Virus record (IMG/VR): IMGVR_UViG_3300031997_000009
Coordinates: 1 to 63,570 of that record
Strand: one strand, 5' to 3'
DNA: 63,570 nt
Origin: a virus
Taxonomy: Duplodnaviria; Caudoviricetes
Shown here: positions 20,764 to 35,000 of the stretch, piece after piece
Numbering within the stretch: the stretch's first letter is position 1
Layout: each line of letters starts with the position of its first letter
Translations under genes and position numbers: made by a program
Notes under the pieces: generated by a model
Databases searched by the model: none
The model's input: only the letters and a program-made list of their open reading frames with translations
What the model was told of the DNA's origin: nothing

Positions 20764-21136
20764 CTTTTTTCCTCCCACACTTGGAGCAGATATTAAGTTC
20801 AACCCCTACGCTAAAGTCGTGCTCGCAAATTCTTACGTCCTGCTGCTTAAACACCTTGGCCGGCTCTGAGGGTATTCTGCCCGTCACGATCCCGGCGATT
20901 TCATCAAAGCCATTGAGAATCTCCTTGCGCTGGAGCTCGTCATCCACGGCCGCAGATGTCTGCTTTAAAAGGTGTAGGGCTATCATGGCGATCTTGGATG
21001 GGTGCAGGGTTGTGCTCATATCGAGAGCAAAAGCCCCGGGCCCCACCTCGTCAGCCACGAGAATCAGGCGCCCTGTCGGCCTGGACAAGGGCGCAGTCCT
21101 CATTTGAAGCCTCGGATCGTTAAAAATGTCGCTCAC
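20750..21136 (-). CDS. hypothetical protein
   Basis: GTGA overlap; C-terminal CEH...CSKCG. Confidence 0.55.
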   Translation of the reverse strand: MSDIFNDPRLQMRTAPLSRPTGRLILVADEVGPGAFALDMSTTLHPSKIAMIALHLLKQTSAAVDDELQRKEILNGFDEIAGIVTGRIPSEPAKVFKQQDVRICEHDFSVGVELNICSKCGRKKDDEL

Positions 21137-21645
21137 TTATCCCCCTTCTTGTTCGGCTGAAAAATGAATTTGATGTGGCGCTGCCTCAAGAAATTAGCAT
21201 CGAAAATAAAAACAGCATGGGACTGCTGGGACGTATCCTTGCTGCCGGAGAACCGCAGGCGCTTCTGGATAAAATTAATCTCGGTGGCGAAGTAACAGGC
21301 CTGCATCCACCACTCCTGATCCGTCTTGCACGGCACAAGGAGGGCGGTCATAAACCGAAAACCCTCTGCCTGCGCGACAAAGCAAATCTTTATGATGTGT
21401 GAGGTAATTTTCCACAGTGTTTTTGTGTCATAAGGAGGGTTGCAGAATACGGCGGCATACGCCCTGGAGATCATATCGGGAGCGGTATTCTCGAAGGGGC
21501 TGCTGATGTCGCAATACTTGTCGCACAGGTTGTTTTCGGCGCTGGCGCAAGCGTCAAAATCAAAATGAAAGCGCCTGTCCAGCGCTTCAAATAACCATGC
21601 TGGCGTCCGCCATTCGCTCGACTTGCTCTTTTCAATTCGCATCAC
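21133..21645 (-). CDS. phage Dam-family N6-adenine DNA methyltransferase
   Basis: EWRTP, FDFDACAS..N, FCNPPY, LLVP..TD..W, RLRF. Confidence 0.9.
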   Translation of the reverse strand: MMRIEKSKSSEWRTPAWLFEALDRRFHFDFDACASAENNLCDKYCDISSPFENTAPDMISRAYAAVFCNPPYDTKTLWKITSHIIKICFVAQAEGFRFMTALLVPCKTDQEWWMQACYFATEINFIQKRLRFSGSKDTSQQSHAVFIFDANFLRQRHIKFIFQPNKKGDK

Positions 21646-21658
21646 TACCGCCTTTAAT

Positions 21659-21961
21659 TTAGGCCAAATCGTTTGCCGACATATATTCTCGGCTCAATAG
21701 CTTATCGTGGTGTTTTTTGTCCAGGAATTTTCTATCCGCATCGCATGGAATTGGTAGAGCTTGAACCTGCCCTCCAGGATTAATACCCAGGCGGTGTGTT
21801 TTTTGGAGAGCATGGGAAAGGCCTAAGGCCTCCGTAATAATAACCCCGCGGAACCCATCTTCTGCGGCAAAAGAAAGCCACCAGAGCTCCGACTTCCCAG
21901 CCTCAACTTCTTCTGAAAGTCGCTCACCGATTCTTTGCTGGACTTGAGATTCGCTTAACAT
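21659..21961 (-). CDS. hypothetical protein
   Basis: WWLSFA...FRGV...LGINPGGQV conserved-looking pattern. Confidence 0.65.
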   Translation of the reverse strand: MLSESQVQQRIGERLSEEVEAGKSELWWLSFAAEDGFRGVIITEALGLSHALQKTHRLGINPGGQVQALPIPCDADRKFLDKKHHDKLLSREYMSANDLA

Positions 21962-22146
21962 CTTTTCTCCTTTTCCCGGTCTTGTTTAATAAGATCTTCC
22001 AGTGCTTCCATAAGAGAGACAGGGCGTTGCAAGCCTATCGACATAAACCCAGCCCAAACCAGTGCCTTGCGCCCAGCCAACTCCCTGCGCGTCCACTCTT
22101 CCCCGCTCTCTTTCAGGTATTGCCATTTGTACTCCATCGAATTCAT
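21955..22146 (-). CDS. hypothetical protein
   Basis: GGAGA RBS before MNSMEY. Confidence 0.55.
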   Translation of the reverse strand: MNSMEYKWQYLKESGEEWTRRELAGRKALVWAGFMSIGLQRPVSLMEALEDLIKQDREKEKRC

Positions 22147-22182
22147 CTTTTCTCCCGAACGCTTGCGTGCGTTCCGTCTTCC

Positions 22183-22318
22183 GCGAAACGGATGGCGCAA
22201 TGCACGCCGTTAAATTTTATCATAGCTACAGTTAGGACACATTTCCTGCAACACAATAGGCACAACCATCTTGTCACAGTTGGGACACTTTTTTAATGGC
22301 TTGCTTGCGCTGTTGTCC
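22183..22318. repeat. attC-like site E0 (136 nt)
   Basis: GCGAAAC ggatg GCGCAA-t-GCA-c-GCCGTTAAA ... TTTAATGGC-t-TGC-TTGCGC t GTTGTCC. Confidence 0.75.
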
Positions 22319-22428
22319 GATGGGGGCGCGGGCCGATATGATGGGCAATTAGGAGGGCAAAGCCCGTTTTCCATAATCGTATGGTTATGATATTCTACAT
22401 CAAAAACACTGGAAGCATATTCTGTCAT
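22210..22428 (-). CDS. cassette C1 protein with C-terminal zinc ribbon
   Basis: AAGGAG RBS; CPNC...CPNC encoded inside E0. Confidence 0.6.
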   Translation of the reverse strand: MTEYASSVFDVEYHNHTIMENGLCPPNCPSYRPAPPSDNSASKPLKKCPNCDKMVVPIVLQEMCPNCSYDKI

Positions 22429-22446
22429 TTTCTTCGCGCTCCTTTC

Positions 22447-22586
22447 GGACAACGGTCAAGGCACCGGCCCGACCGACTATTATTTTATATTGTCGGGGCG
22501 GATGGGGCGAAGTGCGCCAACTCCCACTGCTCTTTACATTCGGGACATAAGTATGTGGGCGCATTTTGCCCTGCTTGTTGTTGTAC
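22447..22586. repeat. attC-like site E1 (140 nt, branched)
   Basis: GGACAAC...GTTGTAC with internal stems CCGGCCCGAC/GTCGGGGCGG and GGGCGAAGTGCGCC/GGCGCATTTTGCCC. Confidence 0.8.
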
Positions 22587-22805
22587 GCTGGATTTTGCGA
22601 TGCCTTGCGCCGCCTCTTTGTGTTCCGGTATTTCGGGGTGACGGATAAGCATATCAGATTGTAGTGCAGCATTCCAAGCGCATTCCGCTAAATCCTCTTT
22701 GGATATTTCAGTGAGCCTATTTTTGTTTTGAAAAGTAGCCACCCACCAATCCGAAAACGACAATCCTTTGCGAAACAGAAGATCGTTTATGTCTCTTTGG
22801 TCCAT
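22485..22805 (-). CDS. cassette C2 hypothetical protein
   Basis: AAGGAGA RBS; FSDWW...AECAWNAA; stop lies inside E1. Confidence 0.65.
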   Translation of the reverse strand: MDQRDINDLLFRKGLSFSDWWVATFQNKNRLTEISKEDLAECAWNAALQSDMLIRHPEIPEHKEAAQGIAKSSVQQQAGQNAPTYLCPECKEQWELAHFAPSAPTI

Positions 22806-22854
22806 CTTTTCTCCTTGCCTTGCGGCGCTGATTTATTTCCTCGCAAAATCTTGC

Positions 22855-22928
22855 GTACAACGGTTGCGAATGGCCGCAGTAAACATCAAGCCTCCGCCTC
22901 GTTTATTGCGGCCTTCGCGTTGTTGCAT
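22855..22928. repeat. attC-like site E2 (74 nt)
   Basis: GTACAAC ggtt GCGAA-t-GGCCGCAGTAAAC ... GTTTATTGCGGCC-TTCGC gtt GTTGCAT, one bulged base. Confidence 0.88.
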
Positions 22929-23290
22929 GGGGCATCTTCGCCCGTACCGTTTGCCCGCTCCCCGCCCACGGATGGGCGGTCTTCGATGTGTTCACGCACT
23001 CCGTCTTTATCGGGCGGACCCCATGTTCTTTTTTCGTTGCCCGCCATTTTCTTTTCCGCTTCCAAGATAAGCGAGAAATTGTTTTTGTGGGCGAGGTGGT
23101 AAAGCAAAAGCAAGCAGTCCGCAGACTCTTCGGCAATGTCCGCGTGTTCGTTGGACTCAATAGCGGAATCGAGTTCCGCGACTTCCTTTTTAAGATGTGC
23201 TACGATTGATTTGCTCGTAGCCCCAGGAAAGGTAGAGTAGGCCCACATTCCAACATAAACCTGAAGCGTATTTACCGTTATGTCTTTCAT
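22886..23290 (-). CDS. cassette C3: MazG-like/DUF550 dNTP pyrophosphohydrolase
   Basis: WAYSTFP...HLKKEVAEL...EESADCLLL...KMAGNEKRTW; start at MKDITV after AGAAAGGA. Confidence 0.8.
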   Translation of the reverse strand: MKDITVNTLQVYVGMWAYSTFPGATSKSIVAHLKKEVAELDSAIESNEHADIAEESADCLLLLYHLAHKNNFSLILEAEKKMAGNEKRTWGPPDKDGVREHIEDRPSVGGERANGTGEDAPCNNAKAAINEAEA

Positions 23291-23341
23291 TCTTTCCTTT
23301 CTTGCGGCCCCGGATGGGCCGCTGTCTTGCGGGCAAATGGT

Positions 23342-23434
23342 ATGCAACGCCCGTTGCTTGCCGAAGTTTGCGTACTCGCAAATTTGGGAGAGCGCCGGAA
23401 ACCCCGGCGCGAACCGGCAAGCAATTTGTTGCAT
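23342..23434. repeat. attC-like site E3 (93 nt)
   Basis: ATGCAAC gcccg TTGCTTGCCG ... CGGCAAGCAA ttt GTTGCAT with two internal hairpins. Confidence 0.88.
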
Positions 23435-23458
23435 GAAGTAAAACCCCGCCGTTTTTCA

Positions 23459-23782
23459 TTATTCTGATGCCTCGATAATGTCCGCTGCCGCCCGTAATGC
23501 TTTTGATTTCAATCTTAGGTAGCTCACATACGCACCAAGGCATGACCCTGCCGCACCGATAATCAGGGCGCACATCAGCAGCACGATGGAAAGATTTGGT
23601 ACCGTGATTGATATCGTTGACATTTAGTCCGCCTCCCTTTTAATTTTGTCGAGTTGCTGCGCCGTGTATGGCTTGTTCTCTTCCGTGATAACGCCGCCCA
23701 GCGTGGCAACATCCTTGATAACGGCAACCGGAAGCATGGCCGTGTTGACCGCAGTTCTGATTAAGGCTCCGAATAATCCCAT
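23459..23782 (-). CDS. cassette C4: two small hydrophobic proteins (23624-23782, 52 aa; 23459-23623, 54 aa)
   Basis: translated by hand: MGLFGALIRTAVNTAMLPVAVIKDVATLGG... and MSTISITVPNLSIVLLMCALIIG...; both have an RBS. Confidence 0.65.
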
Positions 23783-23841
23783 GTTTTTCCTTTCTTGCGG
23801 CCTTGGCCGCTCCCGCTTCGCCTTCGGCGGGGTTTTATTTT

Positions 23842-23925
23842 ATGCAACGGGAAGCTATGCCGAAGCCGCGTCAGCGGTTTGCGGTGCGGGACTTGTTCCC
23901 GCGCCCGGCATAGCGTTTGTTGCCT
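23842..23925. repeat. attC-like site E4 (84 nt)
   Basis: ATGCAAC gggaa GCTATGCCG ... CGGCATAGC gttt GTTGCCT. Confidence 0.88.
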
Positions 23926-24427
23926 GCTGTGTTTCGGCGCGGTCTTCTGTCTTTATGAATGCGACCCAATGAGTCTTTTGCTGCTTTCCGCTTTTGTGCC
24001 CGAAAAGCGGCCGGTAGGGCGTGAGCGCCAGAATACGCGAAACCGGAATTTCATCGGCACACCACTTGAAAACAAGGACGCCATTATCTTTAAGAACGCG
24101 GAACGCTTCGGCAAACCCAGCGCGGAGCATCTCGCTCCAGTCTCCTTTAAGAGTACCGTACTTTAACCCCACCCATCCGGTAGCACCATTGCGCTCAAAA
24201 TGTGGCGGGTCGAAAACGACCAAGGAGAAGGAGCCGCTTTCAAAAGGCAGGGCCGTAAAGTCGCATTGATAATCGGGGTCGATGACAAGCTCACGGCTCC
24301 CTCCAGTGCTGGAAATGTCAGGAAGTGTGCGCCGCTCTTTGCGCTGGTCCACAAAAACGGCCCGCTGGTCATTCTTGTCAAACCAGAACATCTTGCTTCC
24401 GCAGCACATATCCAGGACTGGCTTCAT
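23855..24427 (-). CDS. cassette C5: SAM-dependent amino-type DNA methyltransferase
   Basis: VLDMCCGSKMFWFDK (motif I), VVFDPPH (motif IV), FRVLK..G.LVFKW; start at MKPVLD. Confidence 0.85.
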   Translation of the reverse strand: MKPVLDMCCGSKMFWFDKNDQRAVFVDQRKERRTLPDISSTGGSRELVIDPDYQCDFTALPFESGSFSLVVFDPPHFERNGATGWVGLKYGTLKGDWSEMLRAGFAEAFRVLKDNGVLVFKWCADEIPVSRILALTPYRPLFGHKSGKQQKTHWVAFIKTEDRAETQQATNAMPGAGTSPAPQTADAASA

Positions 24428-24483
24428 TCTTTTTCTCCAGCGGGCTTGCCCCGCGTTAATTGTCTTCCGCGCCGAAACATTGC

Positions 24484-24673
24484 CGGCAACGTCCGACCCA
24501 TTAAGCAGTTGGTTGTTTCTGCTCATCACATTTAATCAACCGATTGAGGCGGTCGATTCCGGCATTCAAAAAGCCACGCGCCTTTTCAATATTTCCACTA
24601 TTCAAACAAGCACCAGCCATGTCAAATTGAACCTTGGCGTCTTCGACCGCCGCCTTAATGGGGCTTGTTGTGC
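24484..24673. repeat. attC-like site E5 (190 nt, branched)
   Basis: CGGCAAC gtccga CCCATTAAG ... CTTAATGGG gctt GTTGTGC; internal stems CAGTTGGTTG/CAACCGATTG and GGCGGTCGA/TCGACCGCC. Confidence 0.8.
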
Positions 24674-24842
24674 GAAGTGACGCGCCTGCCTTTAATTCTT
24701 CAAGTTCGCTAAATGTTTTTGCCAAATCGTTCAGGACTGTGTAAACATCGGGGGGATACATTGTGTCCTTACCAAACGGCAGATAATGATAACGAGCCTG
24801 GAAGCGTTTAGCAAACAGCTCAAAACTTTCATTTGCATTCAT
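24501..24842 (-). CDS. cassette C6 hypothetical protein
   Basis: AAGGAGA RBS before MNANESF; about half of the ORF lies inside E5. Confidence 0.65.
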   Translation of the reverse strand: MNANESFELFAKRFQARYHYLPFGKDTMYPPDVYTVLNDLAKTFSELEELKAGASLRTTSPIKAAVEDAKVQFDMAGACLNSGNIEKARGFLNAGIDRLNRLIKCDEQKQPTA

Positions 24843-24874
24843 TGCTTTTTCTCCTTGTCTTGGCGCGGCATTTT

Positions 24875-25000
24875 GTACAACGGATTGCCCCACTTTGGGA
24901 CGCATCCACAAATATTATTTTTCGTCCCGAAGAATGGGCGAAGCGTTCCGCTTCTTCAAATCAATTTTTGCGGAACGTTTTGCCCTGGGGCTTGTTAGGT
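24875..25000. repeat. attC-like site E6 (126 nt, branched)
   Basis: GTACAAC ggatt GCCCCA ... TGGGGC tt GTTAGGT; internal stems CTTTGGGACG/CGTCCCGAAG and GGGCGAAGCGTTCCGC/GCGGAACGTTTTGCCC. Confidence 0.85.
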
Positions 25001-25355
25001 GCTGTTTTACAAATTCGTTTAACAGGTAATACGCCTTGTCCACGCAACAGCACATCCCCTCTTTTTCATCAATATCTTTTTCGAGCAGGTCTTCAAAAAG
25101 CGGGAAGCCTTTTAGAACGCGAAATAACTCATTGTCAACTTGCTTGCCAGTCTTTGTTTCGATAACGTGGCAGGCGTCTAAAACAATCGACATTATTTGA
25201 TGTTCGACATCACGTAGCAGCCCAGTAAAGCTGACGCCATCAGTTTTGCGAAACATATTCTGGTAGCTCTCGCTTTTTTCGCGTTCTATTCTTCCCGCCT
25301 CAAATAGACCTGTGAGAACTTCTTTGATTGCTGTTGCAGTCACTTTCTCTACCAT
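24915..25355 (-). CDS. cassette C7 hypothetical protein
   Basis: GAAAGGA RBS; 146-aa ORF with stop inside E6. Confidence 0.7.
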   Translation of the reverse strand: MVEKVTATAIKEVLTGLFEAGRIEREKSESYQNMFRKTDGVSFTGLLRDVEHQIMSIVLDACHVIETKTGKQVDNELFRVLKGFPLFEDLLEKDIDEKEGMCCCVDKAYYLLNEFVKQHLTSPRAKRSAKIDLKKRNASPILRDEK

Positions 25356-25393
25356 AATTCTACCGTCCTTTCAGACAACACTTGTAAAATTGC

Positions 25394-25471
25394 ACCTAAC
25401 GCTATGCCGAAGGGCGAAGCGGATTATTCAAAATACATCCTTTAATCCGTTTTGCCCTGGCGCTGTTGTAC
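25394..25471. repeat. attC-like site E7 (78 nt)
   Basis: ACCTAAC gctat GCC-ga-AGGGCGAAGCGGATTA ... TAATCCGTTTTGCCCT-GGC gct GTTGTAC. Confidence 0.85.
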
Positions 25472-25741
25472 GCAAAACCGGCGATGATTTTGATTGCGCC
25501 GATTCAATTAGCCCCTCTGTTTCAATTCTGTCTCTTAAATAACAGAACTCTCTATTTGTCATATCCAAAACCACTCTGACCATATTAGTATGTTCGCTTA
25601 CCCCACCTTTCGTTCTAAACCTATCATGCTTTACTATTTTCATTTCCATTTCCCACAACAAAGACAGCGCATTCTTTCAACCGGGAATGTAAATCGTGGC
25701 CACGAATGACCAAATATTTTACAGAATAATCTTTTAATCAT
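25428..25741 (-). CDS. cassette C8: two small proteins (25640-25741, 33 aa, CxxFGH...CxxC DUF1660-like; 25428-25643, 71 aa)
   Basis: translated by hand: MIKRLFCKIFGHSW...RCLCCGKWK, ATGA overlap to MKIVKHD... Confidence 0.6.
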
Positions 25742-25787
25742 GTCTTTCCTTTCTTATCGGCGCTCTTGGCTATTTCGCCGGTTTTGC

Positions 25788-25854
25788 GTACAACTACCAC
25801 TATGATGCAATAACATTCACCCTATGCTCTGATTTTGCACGTAAGACGAAGCTG
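25788..25854 (-). other. attI-like entry site (or decayed attC)
   Basis: minus strand TTGCATCATAGTGGTAG|TTGTAC: core GTT present, but no matching AAC arm and only a weak stem upstream. Confidence 0.5.
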
Positions 25855-26772
25855 CTACACGGATTCTATTGCGAACCTGAACGTGCCCCTGCTGTCGGGC
25901 TTGCCCTCGATCTTGTACTTGCCGATAAGGATTTTCAACGACTGCCCCTTGGCTGTGGCCACGACGCGATTGCGAATGACCTCGTAGATATCGTCGCACT
26001 CTTTCGCGTCAGACTTCATGGACAGGTACTTGTCGATCCTGTGCTCAAACTCTGGATCGTCGGCAATCTTCATCTCCGTACCGAAGTTCATGCCAGGGGC
26101 GCATACGGTCTTCATCGGACAATCCTTGCACACCTCCACGTCCTTGATGCGCTCGGGCAGGGTGCCGGCCTTCACATGGGTGTTGATGGTCTCGCAAGCC
26201 TTGATACAGGACTCGGCGAGGGCATAATCGAGCTTAACATCCACGGTCTTGATCGCGCCCGTGCTCTTGTTTTTGAGGATGAAAATGCCGTGATCGACGT
26301 TTTTGCCGAGGAGGTAGATCTGGATCTGCGCGAGGTAGGCGCGCGTCCATGGCTTTTTGTTGAAGTCGTCCAGGCACTTGATCATGTCGTAGATGTGCGG
26401 CGCCATGCTCTTGATTTCAATCGGAACCGCCACGCCATCGTCCACGATCACGCCGTCGAGATGCCATGTGATGTTGTACTTCTCCCACTCGCCCACGCTC
26501 TGCTGTTCGATCACGGTTATGCCTGCGTCCTCGAGCATACGCAGAACCGCCTTCTCCTCGCGGTTGCCCTCGTCGTAGATCATCTGCAGGCGCGTGTCCG
26601 GAAGTTCCTTCTCCTGCCAGCGCGTGCGCTCGAGCGCACCCCGGCGTAGACAGCCGTTGAGTTCTGGAACATAATGACCCACGCTCGACGCGCGATTGCT
26701 CTTGCAGGGGATACGCTTGATACGGGTCTGGACGTTCTTTTCGACCGCCTCCACGATATTTATCATTGTCAC
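25855..26772 (-). CDS. Cas4-like PD-(D/E)xK exonuclease
   Basis: RASS...CLR, HLDG, IEIKS, QIQIY, CKDCPMKTVC (1+3 Cys Fe-S pattern). Confidence 0.85.
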   Translation of the reverse strand: MTMINIVEAVEKNVQTRIKRIPCKSNRASSVGHYVPELNGCLRRGALERTRWQEKELPDTRLQMIYDEGNREEKAVLRMLEDAGITVIEQQSVGEWEKYNITWHLDGVIVDDGVAVPIEIKSMAPHIYDMIKCLDDFNKKPWTRAYLAQIQIYLLGKNVDHGIFILKNKSTGAIKTVDVKLDYALAESCIKACETINTHVKAGTLPERIKDVEVCKDCPMKTVCAPGMNFGTEMKIADDPEFEHRIDKYLSMKSDAKECDDIYEVIRNRVVATAKGQSLKILIGKYKIEGKPDSRGTFRFAIESV

Positions 26773-26860
26773 TCCTTAAAGTTAAAGCGCGGTTTTTAGC
26801 TCCATGGATAACCGCAAACCATCCGGGGGAGAAGGAAAGCAAGGAACTCCCCGGTTCACT

Positions 26861-27808
26861 TTACTGTCCGGGCTCGGGCGGCGGAGGCGCTTCCTCGTTG
26901 CCTTGCGCCTGTTTGCCGAAGAGCTCGTAGTGCTCCTTCTCCACGGCCGGGACGAGATGCTTCATCATGGCCTCGCTCACGTCCTCGATCTTGGTCTTTC
27001 CAGACACCATCTTATTCTCCCTGTTCTTCCACGTAGTCAGGCGCGCAAGGGATTTGGACGCGAGATCGGTATCGCCATCGGCCATTTCCAGTAGCATCTT
27101 CCAGACCTTACTCTTGGCGTCGGCGGTCTGCGGGGCCTCGGTCTTGCCACCCTGCGTGCCCTTGCCGTGACGGACCTGAACGCACAGAGACTGCGTGATC
27201 TTGTTCCCGGTAGCGGCCGCGATCTCATCCCACGAGAAGCTCATGCCCAGAAGGCTTTTGAGTCCGCGGTTAAGCGCGTTCGTAAGCGCCTTCTTCTTGA
27301 TGTCGTTGATGTCGATCTCGGACAGGGGCAGAAAATACTTCTCGCTCTTGTGCGTCTGCGCGTCCCATTTGCTGCGCTGCGCGAAGAACTGATCGTGGGT
27401 GCTGCACGACCCGATTTCTGGCACGCTCCGTCCCGCGTAACGGACGGTAGTTTCGCATTGGATATTAATGAATTCGCCCTTATCGTCCGACACGATCTCC
27501 TGTGTGAACCTGGGCGTGTCGTAGCTGACGCCAAAGGCCGAGGCGATCTTGGCCGTTCCCGTCCACATCAGGTAGGGCTTGCCGTCCTGATCGACAAGGT
27601 CGTGGACGTTAAGCATATTGATACAGGCCTTTCGGATACGGCCCTGCGCCTCCATGTATTTCTCGATACGCTTCGTCTGCGCCTCCACACCCTCAGCGGT
27701 CGAGAGATCGATCTGGGTGTTGTCACGCACCTTAATTTGCGTGCTCTCACGAACATCGACTTCGCCGACGCCAGCGCTCTCGGGATCTTTTGCCTTCTGT
27801 TCAGCCAT
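26861..27808 (-). CDS. putative single-strand annealing/recombination protein
   Basis: adjacent to the exonuclease; KPYL..TG..KIA..F and KKALTNALNR motifs; acidic/Pro-rich tail. Confidence 0.5.
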   Translation of the reverse strand: MAEQKAKDPESAGVGEVDVRESTQIKVRDNTQIDLSTAEGVEAQTKRIEKYMEAQGRIRKACINMLNVHDLVDQDGKPYLMWTGTAKIASAFGVSYDTPRFTQEIVSDDKGEFINIQCETTVRYAGRSVPEIGSCSTHDQFFAQRSKWDAQTHKSEKYFLPLSEIDINDIKKKALTNALNRGLKSLLGMSFSWDEIAAATGNKITQSLCVQVRHGKGTQGGKTEAPQTADAKSKVWKMLLEMADGDTDLASKSLARLTTWKNRENKMVSGKTKIEDVSEAMMKHLVPAVEKEHYELFGKQAQGNEEAPPPPEPGQ

Positions 27809-28067
27809 GACGGCCTCCTTTTGAAAGTGGACGATCAGCATCGGCAGCATCCCACCTGTATTCAATAACAGGTCGGCCAGTTTCCGACGCTCCTTCTTGT
27901 TTCAAAATCTTAAACCTGTTCTTTTTAATGAGCCTAAGGTCGCGCTTGAGGTCGGCCGTACCCGTAAGGGCTACGATCTCGGCCTCGCTGTGCCACATCC
28001 CGTCCGCCAAAAACTCGAGTACGCGCCGGGCCGTTGGAGACGGGTTTGTTCCGCTCATATACATCAC
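27801..28067 (-). CDS. small winged-helix protein
   Basis: RVLEFLADGMWHS...LKRDLRLIKK...IEYR. Confidence 0.6.
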   Translation of the reverse strand: MMYMSGTNPSPTARRVLEFLADGMWHSEAEIVALTGTADLKRDLRLIKKNRFKILKQEGASETGRPVIEYRWDAADADRPLSKGGRHG

Positions 28068-29058: not shown

Positions 29059-32000
29059 TCACTGATTCCTTATGCTAAAAGGCTGTTCGCCTTCACCGGC
29101 CGGCGCGACCTCCGCCTGGGGCGCTTTCTTTTTCGGTATAATTCCCGTGCCGAGCTTGTTCATCTGTGCCGCCCAGGTGTTGAGAAAATCCGTCTGCTGG
29201 GCAATAGTCTTCTGCTCGGTAGCGGTGTCGCCACGCTCGCGTGCGGCCTTGGCAATCTTATTGAGGTTAGACATGGCAGTATTGACGTACCGCGTGAGAT
29301 TGTAGGCCATAATCTCGTTCTGGTTCTGGTCCAGGAAGGCCTTTGCGGCCTCGGTGTCTGATGCCGCCAGATCCGTATATTGCTCCCAATATGCCTGTAG
29401 CTCATCTTTCTTGCGGTAAAACATACCCTTGCTGGCGTTAGGAAGCGGAGCGCCTTTGATTCTGCGCCAGAAGGGGATCTCTCTGGTCGCAGGCAGCTCC
29501 GCGCCCGGGACTCCACGAGCATATTGCGCGGTCTTCCATCCCGAACTCACGCCCTTCATCAGAAAATCTCCAAGGCCACCGACCTGTTGTTTGATGAAGT
29601 AGTCAAACAGCTCGGGCGTAATGTCCACCATTCCAGGCCTGTACTTGCTCCCGCCCGTTATCTGGTTCAGCCTCTCCGCAACCGCTTTTGACTGCGCGCT
29701 CACGCCCTTGAAATACATCTGGCTCTCAGGTTTCCACTTCTCATACATCGCTCGTTCCGGGTACATGGGATTGCCGGCGAAATCGGTATTCAGGCGGTAG
29801 TCTTCGTACCAGCGAATAGCGGTTGGAAACATAGTCTGAGCGACATTACCGGAACCGAGCGGATTGAACGATCCCACGATATTAGAAAGAATGTTGGCGG
29901 TAGCCTGTTCGGGCTTCGTCACGCCCCTGGTCATGGACTCAAAAAGCACGCCCGTGGCATAGAATACGCCGAAGTTGAACGGAAGCGGAATCTTATAATA
30001 GGTTCCGTCGGCCTTGGGGATAATCCAGTTCCGGGTGCGGGTAAAGAGCGGTATCTTCTCGTAGTTCTCGTCACCCATCATCATCCGGCCCCACTCCGCG
30101 AAACCCACGCCCATCGTGCCCAGGCCCACGGTAAAGGCTACGCCCTTCGGCGTTTTGAGGATTTGTAGTGCGCGGCGGTTTCCCTGCATGGCCGCATTCG
30201 CGAACATATACAGAGCGTTGAATGTCGCGCCCCATTCGCCCTTGCGGTTGAAGTTGACGGTGAGATTCTTCGCGACCTGGGCCGCGCGTTCGGGTGAGTA
30301 CCCGTGCTCGCGCATGACCTTGAAACAGGACAAGCGCGTTCCGTTTTCGACCGCGGAGTTCATAACGTCTACAAAGTCTTTGACGCCGAAGACAAACTTC
30401 TTGAGGTTGTTCATGGCGCTCTTATCCATGGAGTTGATTTCGCTTACAAAGCGCTTCTGCACAGACTCGAGATCGTTGAAGTTCACGAACTCGACCGTGC
30501 CCCCGTGCTCGCTGAATTCGCGTGCCCACTTCTGCGCATCCGTGATTCCGGACTCCCCTATCATCTTCAGGATCCACTTTCCCGCCACATCCTTTTCCTT
30601 GAACAGATGTCCGTACATACCCTTCATCATCCTCGGCACGCCAAAGGCTATCTGCGCCGCCATCGCCGCGCTGTGCTCGGACGTGATGTTAATCATAGCC
30701 TCCTGTAAGTCACGCTGGAAGTTGGAGATGATGAATTCGGGACTCCATCGCGTGATCATGCCCGCGAGGAAGCGGTTGTACGCACCCGCGGTCCTGACGA
30801 TTTTAGCGAAAGTGCTGTCGTTCATGGTGCCCATGTTCTTCATCGCGTTCGCCAGCGCGTCGTCGTTTATGCGGATAATATTGTCTTCGCCGTTGACCTT
30901 AACAACCACGACATTGGAGGCGCGCTTCCAGTTCGGGGTGACAATTTCCCAGACCTTGTTGTTGGGGCTTTCCATCACCAGGCCCAGAAAGGCGCGCCCG
31001 ACCTCATTCCTGTGCGCAGTAATGATGTCTTTCTGAATCTGGGTGAGAATGTTGGCGATTATGTTATCGGCATTGGCCATGGTCTCGCGCCCCATCGCCG
31101 TCTTAGGCTTGTAGCTGACGCTAAACCCCTTGGCTCCGCCGATAGGGCGGAACTCGGCTTCGAGATCCTTAATCTGCTCTGCCGTAAGCCCCTTCATTCC
31201 CAGCATCTGCGCGTCCTCGGACTCCTGGAAGCCCTTGAGCGGGACGTAGTTTTTCCATGCCCGGTTCCAGCCTTTGATTGTTTCCGCGCTCACGAGGCCA
31301 TACTTTTGCAGGACGTATTCGTGGTAAGTGTTGATGTTCTTGACCATCTTCTCGATTTTGTACAGCTGCGCGAGCTTCTCCGGATGTACGCTCATTTGTT
31401 TGATTATGGCGTCGGCAATAACATCGAACATACCCGAGGAGGGGTTAAGCTGCTCAATGCCATTGAAGAGAACTTTCTGCGCGAACACAGGGTTAATCTT
31501 GGCGCCACTGGCGTTGCGCTCTTTTGCGTGTCGGGCATAGAGCCAAATCCCGATTTCGCGCACGTTCATGCCCGAATCGTGAATAGCTCTTTCGAGTGGT
31601 AACACGTAGTTGACGCGGAAGGAATCGAGCATGGCCTTGGTCTTGCCGTGCATTATCTCCTGTTTCAGATACGCGTCAAAGGCCTCAGGGATCTTCCGCA
31701 CCTGCTGAATCGCCTTCTGGACAAACCCAAGGCGAGCGAACTCGTCAACAGTCTTGCGCTTAAACCACTCGCGAATGCCCTCGCCCGCGACCGTGAAGGA
31801 CTCGTACGCGCCTTCAGGGCTCATGGGGTCGGCGGGAGGGGGCTTGGGAATTAGGGCGCCGCCGGCAGGAGGCGGGGCCTCCGCACCCTTGCGGCCGTAG
31901 ATATGCTCCTCGGCCCTGCGCACGCGCTCCTGTTCCGGGATCTCCTCGGCAGGCTTCGCCGCCTCATCAATCGGCATGGGCTTTTCTTTCGCGAACAACG

Positions 32001-35000
32001 GCTGTCCCTCATACAAGACCTTATCTCTCATCGCCGGCGTGATGTCGAAAGCGGGCTGGTTTTCATGAACGCCCTTGTCCGCAAAGTCACCCTCCTCGTG
32101 AGCCCTTCCTCGTGCCTCGTAGGGAATGTTTATTTTTCCTACTTTCCCACCGCCGAGCCTTCTTAATATGTCGTCGGCTACCTGGGGAAGCATCTCGTCA
32201 TAGAATCTTATGAACCCCTTGCCGCCTACGGTCAAGCCTTTTCCGGTGATCTCTCCCGACTCCTTTCCCATTATCTCAGCGGCGTTGGCTTTATTGGATA
32301 GGAGTTCGGACAGGGGCTTGCCGATCCATTCGTTATTGCCCGATGAACTGTCCAAAATTTTACCCTCACTATCTACATAAACCCTCACTTCACCTGATCG
32401 CTTGGTGTCGAGAATAACCTTTTTTACCGCGAGCAGTCTCGGATGTTCAATTCCTGGACCTGCTGCCAATGCGTTATCGTACTTCCCCCACCTTACTCCA
32501 TTAAGCACCGATCTCATGCTTTTCGACCATCTCGCCACTTGCTGTATGCCAGTCGTCCACGCAACCCTATCCATCCCCCGTTCCGCCGCATAGCGTATGG
32601 CGCGTTTCAAGGCGAGACCAACCCATGCCTTCGTATTCGTAACAAAGGGGCCGCGAGAAACGCCGGTACTTACCAATTCCCGAAAATGATCCGCGGCATC
32701 AGTTACATCGTTTTGTGCTTGATGATACTCGTTTCTTGCAAGAAATTCCTTTCTCGCATCAGATTTTTCGCCCCGCTTTAGGGCTTCCGAGATGGCGTCC
32801 AGCTCGCGGGCTGCAACAGCAAATCTTTCTTCCGCTCTTTTAAGCGTGGCCTGGGCGGTTTCGATGGCGATCCTGTCGTATTTTCCGCCTTCTTTCCTGT
32901 AGCTCTGTCCCCAATCGCTTTGGATTTCTTCAAGAAACAAAACCTTTTTGCCTTCGGCATCCACGCGCTCGTTGAAGCGTATCCACGCAAGCACATTCTT
33001 AATTTCAGGATAATGCGGGCCAGCGGCCAATTCCGGGCCCGGAAGCGAAATAGCCAGCTCGCCGTAATTTTCTCCGCCGGGAAGGCGCCATAATGGGCTC
33101 ATGTATTGGGGTACTGTTCCAGGGTAGTTTCGTTCTCGAATATAATTGTCAATGGTTTCTTGGGGAAGAATGTCAACCATCCTTCCGTTAAAATTCAGCC
33201 TGAGTTTTGTTGGCTCAAAATCAGACGGCCGTGTCTGCCATAAGTTACCCAGCGGGTCGGTAAAAGACCGTTCTCCATCGGCAGGCCCCTCCCATGGAAT
33301 ATCCATTTTTCTAACGGCGAGCATCGTGGTTTCTTCGGGCTTTGGAACGCCGGGCCCTATTTTGTCTTTGTCGTACTTCCCGTCCAGGTATTCGATTATG
33401 GTATTGCGCTCTACCGGCGCCTCGTCCACAAGCTCAAGAAATTCCTTGATCCCCGACCATTCGATCTCGTCTTGTTTGATGCCGAGCTTGCCCTTGTTAC
33501 TGTCGAGCCATTGGATCCATTGTTTGCCCTTGAGATTGTCGAATCTGGCGGGAGCATTCTCGAATGCGCGCTTGAGAACGGAGTAGAACGTGGGGGCGGT
33601 AGGACCCCCACCTTCGCGAGCGTACCGGGTCGTGGCTTTTTCACGCTCGTTCTTGTTCTTGAGCCGGCCCAGGACATCGCGAATTATGGCATCAATCTCC
33701 TCTGTCCGCGTGTACTCGGTGAGCCCAAAACGCTGCAGCAGGCGCTTAAAGAAGGCGCGGATCATTCCCTTGACCGTGACGTTGGCCTTGGTGTAGCTGC
33801 GGGCGTCGTAGCGTTCGATCTGCTTGGCTATCCACTCGTCCATGAGCACGTCGGGGGTGGCGTCACGGTAGGTATGGAATACCTGCACGCGCTCGATATA
33901 ATCCCGCAACTCCTTGCTCTTGAGCCAATTCTCTTTGTACTTTGATTTCAGTTCTTCCGTTATCCGGTTCAAGGGCGTGTCCTGAAAATACTTGCGGTCT
34001 TCCTCGAACAGGCGCTTGATGACGTCGTGGATCCTGGGGTCGGAACGGATTAAGGGAGAAGCGCCGAAGTGTCCTGCTATTTCATGGACGAGGATGCGCC
34101 GGAGCTCGGATGCGGGCAGGCGCGAACTGATGGTGACACGGGCTCGTCCGTCTGCGCCCATGAAGATTTCGGCCTGGGCGTCAGGTGGAAGACGGCCCTC
34201 GGTATCGAGAACGATATCGAGATTTTCCGGCTTATAGTGCCCGAAGTAGTCTTCGAGAACGGTCGCTGTTACCTTGGATACTATTTCTGGCGCTCGCCCC
34301 ACGGCCGTAGAAGGACGGGGGCGGGGCGCGCCCACTACCAGACGGTTGCGCCTGGACAGACGCCATTGTCCAACATCAGTATTGGGCAAGACCTTCTTCA
34401 GGTCCGCCATCAGCGAGTTCCAATCGTCGGCGCTGACCTCTTCCATGTCGCCGTCGGGGTTGTCCCTCTTCATCTCCGCGCGCCGGCGGGCCGCCTCCTC
34501 GTTTTTGTTCGTAATCTCGCGCCGGGCATCGTCCTCACTCTCCCATTCCAGGTCCTGCTGCTCGTCCCGGAGGCGCTTTACTTCTTTCCTTATCGCGGCT
34601 TCGGTAATTTTCTCTTTTCTGGCCGTAAGCGTGGCACGGGCCCGGGCCTGGAGCTCGGAGTCGGTGACGACGATGTTGTCTGCCCTGATTTTTTCCACTT
34701 CCCTGGCAATGTCGGCCTCGCTGATGCTTTTCTTCTTCGACACCCCGCCCCTGGCCGCGACATCGCGACGCCGAGCCTGAATTTGGTTGCGGGCCATCTG
34801 CTTGAGCTCGTTTTCGTCGGCGACGAAGACCCGGCGCTTGACCTTTTCCGCGGTCATGTAGCCGCCTTCGCCCTCGACGGCTATGCCCACCTGTGTAAAC
34901 ACCTTCTTCTGCGCAAGATAGTCTCGGACTTCGTAAGACTGTCCGGACTTGGTGTAACCGTCGTCGTGAAGCTGCTGCCTGATCCCGTCTACCTTCTGTT

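Follow-up and report, generated by a model that had tools for sequence, protein, structure and literature searches.

A probable CALIN-type cassette array on a complete phage genome in which genes run into their attC-like hairpins

The window analyzed here is a 63,570-nt stretch of DNA holding a complete phage genome. On its minus strand, immediately downstream of a backbone nuclease gene, lie eight cassettes that we name, in gene order, C7, C6, C5p, C5, C4, C3, C2, and C1. The limits of the array were set at the first junction (25794) and the last R' (22189), and its features are as follows.

25855..26772, minus strand: PD-(D/E)XK / Cas4-like nuclease (weak match), backbone gene directly upstream of the array
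25786..25795, minus strand: first junction, attI-like position; R' core GTTGTACGC, no upstream hairpin
22189-25794, minus strand: cassette array, eight co-oriented cassettes bounded by attC-like hairpins (xCAAC...CGTTG)
25428..25661, minus strand: C7 last ORF, 77 aa, no family; stop 30 nt before R'
25392..25473, minus strand: C7 attC-like hairpin; R'' GCGTACAAC, R' GTTAGGTGC; bottom-strand fold closes via the R boxes, z -2.7
24915..25355, minus strand: C6 ORF, 146 aa; 26 codons after AAC, stop at +76 nt
24873..25002, minus strand: C6 attC-like hairpin; R'' GCACCTAAC, R' GTTGTAC; z -5.3
24501-24842, minus strand: C5p ORF; stop at +8 nt after AAC
24484..24518, minus strand: C5p degenerate 27-nt element, AACAAC...CGTTG; ends cassette C5p
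23855..24427, minus strand: C5 ORF, DNA methyltransferase (phrog_954); stop at +61 nt after AAC
23840..23927, minus strand: C5 attC-like hairpin, three-way junction; z -5.1
23624-23782 and 23459-23623, minus strand: C4 ORFs, the only cassette whose ORFs stop ahead of the element
23340..23436, minus strand: C4 attC-like hairpin; z -6.8
22886..23293, minus strand: C3 ORF, MazG-like dATP/dGTP pyrophosphohydrolase; stop at +33 nt after AAC
22853..22930, minus strand: C3 attC-like hairpin; z -3.7
22485..22805, minus strand: C2 ORF, 106 aa; 31 codons after AAC, stop at +92 nt
22445..22588, minus strand: C2 attC-like hairpin; R'' GCGTACAAC, R' GTTGTCC; z -4.5
22210..22428, minus strand: C1 ORF, 72 aa, orphan; 34 codons after AAC, including CPNC..CPNC, stop at +99 nt
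22181..22320, minus strand: C1 last attC-like element; R'' TCGGACAAC, R' GTTTCGC; weaker fold, z -1.3

A cassette unit begins with the TT in one R' core (C|GTTG) and finishes with the G in the core that follows. AAC and CGTT(G/A/T) cores are present in all eight window elements. The first junction lies about 60 nt beyond the stop of the nuclease gene; the 20 nt starting at 25794 match the reverse complement of the C7 3' end without a mismatch, and contigs of another metagenome run (X6) break at this junction (25791-25820). No matching R'' occurs downstream of the C1 element, and thus the array ends there. Using the nuclease gene as an anchor, we found arrays at the same locus, behind the same gene, in two related phages, L091 and G001 (the latter with about 11 cassettes); almost no cargo is shared. 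The profiles TIGR02249, PF00589, and PF00239 gave no matches in the six frames of the window, such that neither a tyrosine/serine recombinase signal nor the adjacent IntI that, with attI and Pc, defines a complete integron was found in the 63.6-kb genome, and G001 yielded only a weak, non-IntI tyrosine recombinase. We read the window array as integron-type and, because this phage lacks an integrase, as CALIN-type.

When folded as the bottom strand, 16 of the 20 elements from the three phages close with their R boxes paired and an inner stem present (15 of these with z <= -2.0); closure was likewise obtained for a2 and b1, two elements beyond these 20. In attC sites extrahelical bases direct strand choice, and the folds here show asymmetric internal loops adjoining the R box. 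Folding is poor in three elements: C1 (z -1.3, an imperfect L stem of about 20 bp with a loop of about 90 nt), G001 a0 (z -0.55), and L091 b3 (z +0.9, with no hairpin). A circular cassette carries one whole site, so its first bases (TTxxxx) are complementary to its own R''. In six of the eight window cassettes, 17-22 of the 5' 26 nt are the reverse complement of the cassette's own 3' end/R'' (the C6 start at 25400 pairs with the C6 hairpin at 19/26, and the C5 ends match at about 21/26 nt), and such complementarity was found in 19 of 23 cassettes when the related arrays are included, against a background of 5 in 6241 GTT..AAC pairs reaching at least 17/26. The exact complementary run from GTT is 7-20 bases long in 7/8 window cassettes. 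The canonical attC consensus is RYYYAAC / GTTRRRY with spacers of 5-6 nt. The boxes in our elements mostly read GYRCAAC / GTTGYAY, with some fitting the canonical consensus (ACCTAAC, GTTAGGT), whereas the spacers (1-3 nt after AAC and 4-5 nt before GTT) and the outer stems of 20-26 nt differ from those of classical attC sites; an Rfam search returned no match. Together with the strand bias and the population joints described below, the end complementarity marks the window elements as recombination sites. The preliminary description had called for the recombined strand to be determined, and the stem mismatches allow this: 30 read as A.C in the gene strand, and G.T in its complement, and 2 are the reverse (p = 2e-7); in 20 of 24 elements the bottom-strand fold has the greater stability. 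The predicted folded, recombinogenic strand is thus the bottom strand, that is, the window + strand, antisense to the genes.

Other metagenome runs (X5, X9, and X11) contain contigs showing that natural populations gain, lose, and reorder cassettes by crossover inside the CGTTG core. A contig from X11 skips exactly 24487-24877 (391 nt), the C5p cassette, with the joint inside CGTTG; the degenerate C5p element still works as a cassette boundary. Contigs from X5 and X9 join 22450 to 24486, placing the C2 R' directly onto the C5 cassette, and the X9 contig holds C5 in its entirety, flanked on both sides by foreign junctions. The two joints with good support (119- and 123-nt sides) both lie at R', not R'', and at both the ambiguity of the joint is 5 nt, corresponding to CGTTG.

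As the preliminary description reported, the last ORF crosses the AAC of R'' and stops inside the hairpin in seven of the eight cassettes (C4 is the exception), with its stop 9-36 nt ahead of the next GTT. Most ORFs extend 33-99 nt into the site and take in its 5' arm and loop, in many cases with some of the 3' arm as well, which bears out the claim of dual-use DNA in the sense that arms and loops of recombination hairpins lie inside ORFs. The C7 ORF adds 12 codons after AAC (TAPGQNGLKDVF; first base of the stop at +34 nt). Two details of that description were revised: the roughly 55 residues of C6 placed within the element it called E5 could not be reproduced (26 codons were counted after AAC), and the four ORFs said to cross in the same frame number three of seven in the window (C7 LRTT, C6 HLT, and C5 QAT). 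Over the three arrays, same-frame crossing occurs in 8/14 cases (p = 0.058 before correction for frame choice), and a shared crossing frame is thus not beyond chance. Nor is tail length, as the frame used by the ORF stays open longest after AAC in 5 of 16 cases (5.3 expected). No crossing ORF runs past R' (0/16, compared with 9/32 for the other frames, p = 0.02), a difference that weakens when only well-folded elements are counted (0/13 versus 7/26, p = 0.07).

Homologue comparisons were possible for three window proteins, the C5 methyltransferase, the C6 family, and the C3 MazG (against P0128), and they gave the pattern that the description had asked to be checked: similarity stops at the AAC box or no more than some 20 residues ahead of it, and the tails differ. 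The conserved core of the methyltransferase ends at residue 159, with 21 codons (TNAMPGAGTSPAPQTADAASA) after AAC; two 124-aa homologues of C6 end 3-4 residues past the AAC-box position; and the Pfam domain of MazG ends near residue 107, with 12 codons after AAC. The hairpin-encoded C2-type tail GQNAPTYLCPECKEQWEL was found on three unrelated protein bodies, the last 44 residues of C2 recurring on two others; the P0126 body has a homologue that lacks this tail, and the MazG body P0128 carries only its inner-hairpin part. Hence, tails are reassorted among proteins, as the proposal of C-terminal peptide swapping anticipated, but crossover at R'', the route it suggested, is not what the observed joints display, as these lie at R' (CGTTG). 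Likewise, the cysteine motifs are present as described, with the C1 tail reading KCPNC..17..CPNC and the C2 tail holding CPEC, but "domain" is too strong a word for the window tails, since the tested tails are unconserved and C1 is an orphan. Several of the long-loop tails are Cys-rich and belong to proteins that are Cys-rich throughout. We infer from these comparisons that the extra 12-34 residues are mostly hitch-hiking extensions set by the hairpin DNA rather than conserved domains, although some tails may be real protein parts.

We consider it reasonably probable that the locus is an integrase-less, CALIN-type phage array in which genes overlap hairpins, cassettes move via CGTTG, and tails mostly hitch-hike. 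Packing is so tight that the hairpin starts within the gene, and in seven of the eight cassettes an ORF without a stop before R'' continues through the 5' arm and loop and ends in the 3' arm, invariably ahead of the crossover point. Because the stop precedes that point, each cassette would stay a self-contained translation unit wherever it is inserted. The same tail would appear on unrelated proteins, and different tails within one family, because hairpins, or parts of them, attach to different genes. By analogy with mobile integrons, translation into the hairpin probably keeps it unfolded in the mRNA and lessens polarity on the next cassette. The recombinase would be supplied in trans, either as a host integron integrase or as an unrecognised phage enzyme.

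Other readings account for part of these data. The PeSL modules of T4-type phages are exchanged by homologous recombination through conserved leaders, and the cassettes might move likewise, with the hairpins acting in RNA, between early genes, as terminators or as RNase III or stabiliser sites. Cassettes whose cargo differs do share leaders (61-63 nt) and 3' blocks (26-44 nt) at 96-98% identity, both inside G001 and in comparisons of G000 with G001, and the array adjoins a nuclease gene. Nevertheless, none of four terminator-like sites on the gene strand (21000-27000) coincides with an element, the 30-to-2 wobble asymmetry favours folding of the strand antisense to mRNA, and the 5 nt shared at population joints fall far below what homologous exchange needs; moreover, the cassette-end complementarity spans 140-480 nt of gene and therefore does not form a local RNA hairpin. 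We regard this RNA-level reading as very unlikely. Somewhat less so, yet still rather unlikely, is tail swapping by crossover at the gene-proximal R'', for example a top-strand exchange of the inner hairpin together with its encoded peptide. Similarity breaks at R'' hint at exchange there: G000 C2 has its 61-nt leader and its 44-nt 3' block, as far as ..ACAAC, in common with G001 a9, after which the two diverge fully, and an X11 contig matches to 22578 and continues, as a loose end, into a different inner sequence. An X5 contig joins 22454 to 22578, the intervening sequence not being known, and the partial C2 tail of P0128 fits the same scheme. Against it, both well-supported joints are at R', and the evidence comprises similarity breaks, a 24-nt side, and a loose end, none of which demonstrates reciprocal products; the cargo, too, is different in C2 and a9, which rules out one R'' crossover as the explanation for this pair.

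True dual coding, in which the tails are selected C-terminal domains (e.g., zinc ribbons) and the hairpin arms are under joint constraint, would account for the CxxC pairs in C1, C2, and several G001 and L091 tails. It is also consistent with the 48-codon tail of G001 a2, which fills a 125-nt loop under a perfect 17-bp stem and resembles an ordinary helical protein, and with a codon-usage score that, as a weak test, ranks the ORF frame above the others in 11/16 tails. The tail of L091 b3 differs from that of its paralogue by 7 synonymous and 1 non-synonymous codons out of 21, but this pair is under purifying selection without a hairpin and is thus not a case of folded-site overlap. The conserved parts of C5, C6, and C3 end before or at R'' while their tails differ, the CPEC tail occurs on protein bodies of three unrelated kinds, for which one common zinc site is impossible, and C1 is without relatives (its protein model was uninformative); dual coding therefore seems unlikely to us. 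We hold as similarly doubtful the idea of a distinct integrase-less integron relative, with a hairpin of about 200 nt whose outer stem and 5' arm are coding, cassette birth by fold-back, and exchangeable inner hairpins. The non-coding leader and 3' arm resemble inverted copies of coding sequence, which would point to fold-back copying around the 3' end of the gene; if the idea were true, an inner hairpin and its peptide would move between unrelated genes as a natural phage form of C-terminal exon shuffling, a peptide-module exchange driven by a recombinase not yet identified.

Recombination sites within coding sequence that alter a C-terminus are known from shufflons (R64 Rci/sfx) and the Mu Gin/gix tail-fibre segments, where conserved duplex sites mediate inversion within one gene. 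In contrast, the window sites are folded single strands that bound whole-gene cassettes, and the observed joints follow the stop codon. CALIN-type arrays in phages have already been reported, including CALINs with methyltransferase cassettes (Qi et al. 2023, PMC9892861). As far as the available text of that report describes them, they resemble the window array in their small co-oriented cassettes, attC-type hairpins, AAC/GTT cores, lack of a nearby integrase, orphan DNA methyltransferase cassette, and phage location; the window differs in end complementarity of 20-26 nt instead of a 7-bp R box, in shorter spacers, in ORFs that mostly reach 33-99 nt into the site, and in turnover that is directly visible. 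In the consulted sections of PMC11511950, attC overlaps the stop codon of most resistance cassettes, and extending translation to attC in mobile integrons doubled downstream expression, relieving polarity. These compact cassettes share with ours a gene end overlapping the recombination site, but their overlap is a few bases at the stop, compared with 12-34 window codons and a maximum of 48 in G001; in these phage arrays the overlap takes in the 5' arm, the loop, and a portion of the 3' arm. A related idea, that a site defined by its structure may be encoded in other sequence, including genes, comes from attC sites built synthetically into arbitrary sequence (Nivina et al. 2020, PMC7439510, in the part cited here); those sites were engineered, whereas the window would be a natural case, with tails that look mostly unselected.

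How integron cassettes are born and how attC sites become attached to genes is an open question, to which these arrays add a site starting well inside the gene, a leader mirroring the gene's own 3' end, one hairpin-encoded peptide on unrelated proteins, and turnover among co-occurring phage variants. They offer a natural system in which to test how cassettes arise and what is lost or gained when a recombination site is translated. Hairpin read-through may be all that lies behind orphan C-terminal "domains" of phage proteins. The ACID database, according to the portion of its description used here (PMC2674596), limits ORF/attC overlap to 15 bp, and rules of this kind would mis-call or drop such cassettes.

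The array is a phage CALIN that is actively reshuffled in nature, and the hairpin elements terminating its cassettes represent a variant form of the integron attC site. The window is an entire 63,570-base virus record, rated complete by CheckV. Its genes include those for terminase, a DUF932 protein and an amidoligase, together with a single tRNA-His (the sole Rfam match across the window at gathering threshold), and no sequence in it resembles host flank. Eight cassettes (C7, C6, C5p, C5, C4, C3, C2 and C1) follow one another in gene direction between 25794 and 22189, and a clear family could be assigned to two of the array genes, encoding a methyltransferase and a MazG-like protein:

25855-26772, PD-(D/E)XK / Cas4-like nuclease gene (weak match), with the array directly downstream
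23855-24427, minus strand, DNA methyltransferase of C5 (phrog_954, E = 8e-68)
23624-23782, minus strand, ORF of C4 (phrog_33676, function unknown)
22886-23293, minus strand, MazG-like dATP/dGTP pyrophosphohydrolase of C3 (clear family match)

The remaining array ORFs matched no family, and Pfam gave none for nine ORFs neighbouring the array. A 334-aa ORF at 26861-27865 was first assumed to encode RecT, an assignment that was rejected, the ORF being without family match, and a single 2769-aa ORF occupies 29059-37368 on the minus strand. No match was obtained with the nuclease as a single-protein query against viral contigs or with the array by blastn against GenBank phages, while a 17-mer scan of genome contigs returned 53 loci, each a chance match on inspection, and no host or prophage. 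Third-codon-position GC is ∼0.50 in the cassette genes (22000-25800) versus 0.70 in the phage's long genes, a composition that would fit a foreign or separate origin of the cassettes.

Two related arrays were recovered for comparison, one in a complete phage found by its leader motif (G001, coordinates given as L027) and one in a third contig reached through the nuclease (L091). Both are of like build and occupy the same place as in the window; the cargo is nearly all different among the three arrays, with one ORF in common by all-against-all blastp. Every cassette's terminal element begins with a gene-proximal box ending in AAC (R'') and finishes with C-GTT in the gene-distal box (R'). Folded as single-stranded DNA, the + strand forms an imperfect hairpin in 16 of 20 elements from the three phages, in which the R boxes pair at the base, followed by an asymmetric internal loop and an inner stem. 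The z value is -2.0 or lower in 15 of these 16 (range -2.0 to -6.8), and element a10 of G001 closes through its boxes too, with z = -1.8; such closure was likewise obtained for two further elements, G001 a2 and L091 b1. The four elements without this fold are those of C7, where the inner stem alone forms, and C1 (z = -1.3), where outer pairs form beside the R boxes, together with G001 a0 (z = -0.55), a probable attI-like first junction, and L091 b3 (z = +0.9, no hairpin). The element of C5p is a 27-nt remnant.

Taken from the GTT of the R' before it, the opening bases of every cassette are reverse-complementary to the 3' end of that cassette; this is how a unit existing as a circle with a single complete site is classically recognized. 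Complementarity over 26 nt reaches 22 in C4, 21 in C5, 20 in C7 and C2, 19 in C6 and 17 in C1, with 12 in C3 and 7 in C5p; elsewhere in the window, a value of 17 was reached by 5 of 6241 GTT..AAC pairs with cassette-like spacing. The complementary ends extend 20-26 nt, well past the 7-bp box (window 22189-25794; L027 5227-10341; L091 4675-6284), and a spot without Watson-Crick pairing is conserved at positions 8-11, counted from GTT (leader GTTGnnnGCAA, 3' end CAGCnnnCAAC). In C6, where conserved coding sequence forms the left arm, the non-coding leader thus resembles the gene's end copied in inverted orientation.

The array is present in 16 sediment metagenome runs, three of which are possible sources of the record, and we compared four of them (X5, X6, X9 and X11) as contigs. 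In the X11 contig, 24486 is joined straight to 24878 and cassette C5p (391 nt) is missing. In contigs of X9 (side of 123 nt) and X5 (side of 25 nt), 22450 is followed by 24486, such that the C2 hairpin leads directly into the methyltransferase cassette; in X9, 25 foreign letters lie beyond the R' of that cassette. The ambiguity at both joints is 5 nt, identical to the CGTTG core. Array content varies among the four runs across window positions 21000-27000. In X6, sequencing depth is 15-24 in the backbone on either side of the array and 1-7 over most of the window's cassettes, and a contig links 24867 to 22174 with 15 other letters in between, suggesting a variant that has just the first two cassettes.

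These observations bear on what the hairpins do and at which level. Outer-stem mismatches comprise 30 A.C on the gene strand (G.T on the other) versus 2 of the reverse kind (p = 2e-7), and the more stable fold lies on the + strand in 20 of 24 elements. With respect to the recombined strand, which the preliminary description proposed to determine, this asymmetry and the stabler + strand point to a folded strand antisense to the mRNA, which would suit recombination of single-stranded DNA. An RNA-level function of the hairpins fits poorly with the wobble bias toward the antisense strand, and likewise with the placement of the four terminator-like sites on the gene strand, none of which falls on an element. 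Homologous exchange through the conserved leaders may well add to the replacement of cargo, but it cannot create the 5-nt joints; with just five bases shared, these cannot stem from homologous recombination or from joining by the assembler at k = 31. End complementarity, strand asymmetry, the related arrays and the natural variants all say that the elements are recombination sites.

Models of integron integrases, tyrosine recombinases in general and resolvases gave no match in the six frames of the window, which places the array in the CALIN type. CALIN arrays are known in phages, methyltransferase cassettes included, and IntI1 recombines phage attC sites, according to Qi et al. (PMC9892861); the array studied here is of the same kind as those described there, without an integrase and with a methyltransferase cassette. 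G001 has a weak tyrosine-recombinase match (a 399-aa ORF) by an excisionase-like gene, at L027 1548-3181 and ∼1.5-2 kb beyond its array, and IntI was not matched; the window's phage has neither this ORF nor the excisionase-like gene.

The overlap between gene ends and recombination sites in this array is much deeper than usual. The preliminary description had the last ORF reading past the AAC box and stopping within the element in seven of eight cassettes, a count that was borne out, C4 being the sole cassette without a crossing ORF. Counted from the codon with the AAC end, the tails comprise 12 codons in C7, 26 in C6, 21 in C5, 12 in C3, 31 in C2 and 34 in C1, while the C5p ORF runs 8 nt beyond its box; each stop falls 9 to 36 nt ahead of the R' G. 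The CPNC..CPNC motif of C1 and the CPEC motif of C2 are present as described. Our count for C6 did not reproduce the reported length of about 55 aa, and three ORFs in the window, rather than four, cross in the same frame; this common frame holds 8 of the 14 crossing ORFs across the three arrays, which is not significant. Among G001 elements a1-a11, 5 of 11 are crossed, one more has a TAG inside R'', and five ORFs end before the element, whereas in L091 all four are crossed, including one that lacks a hairpin.

In 5 of 16 cases the ORF frame was the one remaining open furthest, a negative outcome for that test; frames that enter R'' without a stop run on for what looks like a random distance to the next one. 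No crossing ORF extends past R' (0/16, compared with 9/32 other frames, p = 0.02; 0/13 versus 7/26 in the 13 well-folded elements, p = 0.07). Keeping the stop before R' would make sense because a gene ending past the crossover would alter its end with every move. The codon-usage score is better in frame for 11 of 16 tails, although this comparison is confounded by cassette GC3 (∼0.50 versus 0.70 in the long training genes). In most resistance cassettes attC overlaps the stop codon, and the next cassette was expressed twice as strongly when translation reached attC (PMC11511950); a cassette database permits an overlap of ≤15 bp (PMC2674596). Our literature search found no report of natural ORFs extending tens of codons into attC, or of common attC-encoded tails.

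The expectation that similarity among C3 and C5 homologues would end at the AAC, with variable tails beyond, agreed with the alignments. For the methyltransferase (2499 homologues, 30 of the 120 listed being aligned), the invariant core stops at ...KTHWVAFIK (residue 159) and the AAC box corresponds to residues 166-169; past the core, the tail differs in every aligned sequence, from none to dozens of residues. The Pfam domain of the MazG protein finishes ∼15 residues ahead of the box. The two homologues of C6 (124 aa, ∼60% identical) align to ...EFVK.HL and end 3-4 residues on, and C6 itself reads HL-T at the AAC box, then continues for 26 more residues of basic character. C1 is an orphan with no homologue of near length, its AlphaFold model, built without an alignment, was uninformative (pLDDT 45.8), and a search of the ESM Atlas with G001 a2 gave scores no higher than 0.84. 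Wherever comparison is possible in the window, the tails are thus not conserved.

An exhaustive HMMER search with the C2 protein identified two proteins that match at the C-terminus only. P0126 (106 aa) joins an unrelated body to C2's last 44 residues (91% identical), and a homologue of its body in another viral contig has a different ending. P0128 belongs to the MazG proteins; it shares 50% identity with C3 as far as ...KDGV.EHI and then continues with the inner portion of the C2 tail (GQNAPTYLCHECKEQWEL). P0128 is absent from the viral contigs searched, and a metagenome scan with tblastn confirmation gave no relative of P0126; a metagenome 20-mer scan returned G001's own contig and two unrelated contigs only, and a 23-mer from the C2 3' block matched G001 alone. 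Compared by eye at the DNA level, C2 and G001 a9 have in common a 61-nt leader (58/61) and a 44-nt 3' block ending in ..ACAAC (43/44), while cargo and inner hairpin are unrelated; as a result of this common block, two unrelated proteins share KEAAQGIAKSS.QQ. A conserved hairpin motif (..GCGCACTTCGCC..) encodes AHFA near protein ends in two phages. The outcome envisaged in the preliminary description, one C-terminal peptide on different proteins, thus exists; as for crossover at the gene-proximal box, the clear joints lie at R', and the R'' side offers hints in the form of similarity breaks, a joint whose one side measures 24 nt, and a loose end at position 22578. The overlap yields tails that are for the most part not conserved and that move along with the hairpins. 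Functional dual coding is possible for the long-loop elements: L091 b3 differs from a paralogue's tail by 7 synonymous and 1 non-synonymous changes in 21 codons, but that element does not fold.

Type-1 cassettes, whose genes terminate ahead of the hairpin, have an ATG overlapping or abutting that stop (TAATG, ATGA, TAAATG; window 23437-23460, L027 ∼9925 and 6857). From it a small frame, MK[DN]GGVLLHAT.., crosses the hairpin, and its end in G001 a7 lies just beyond the start codon of the next cassette. The overlapping frame could possibly provide translational coupling across the hairpin. The distance from stop to next ATG is 72, 72, 73 and 72 nt in four cassettes (25428/25355, 24915/24842, 24501/24427 and 23855/23782), in which the stop-to-R' and R'-to-ATG parts vary; it is 165, 80, 56 and 63 nt in the other four, and G001 is without this regularity.
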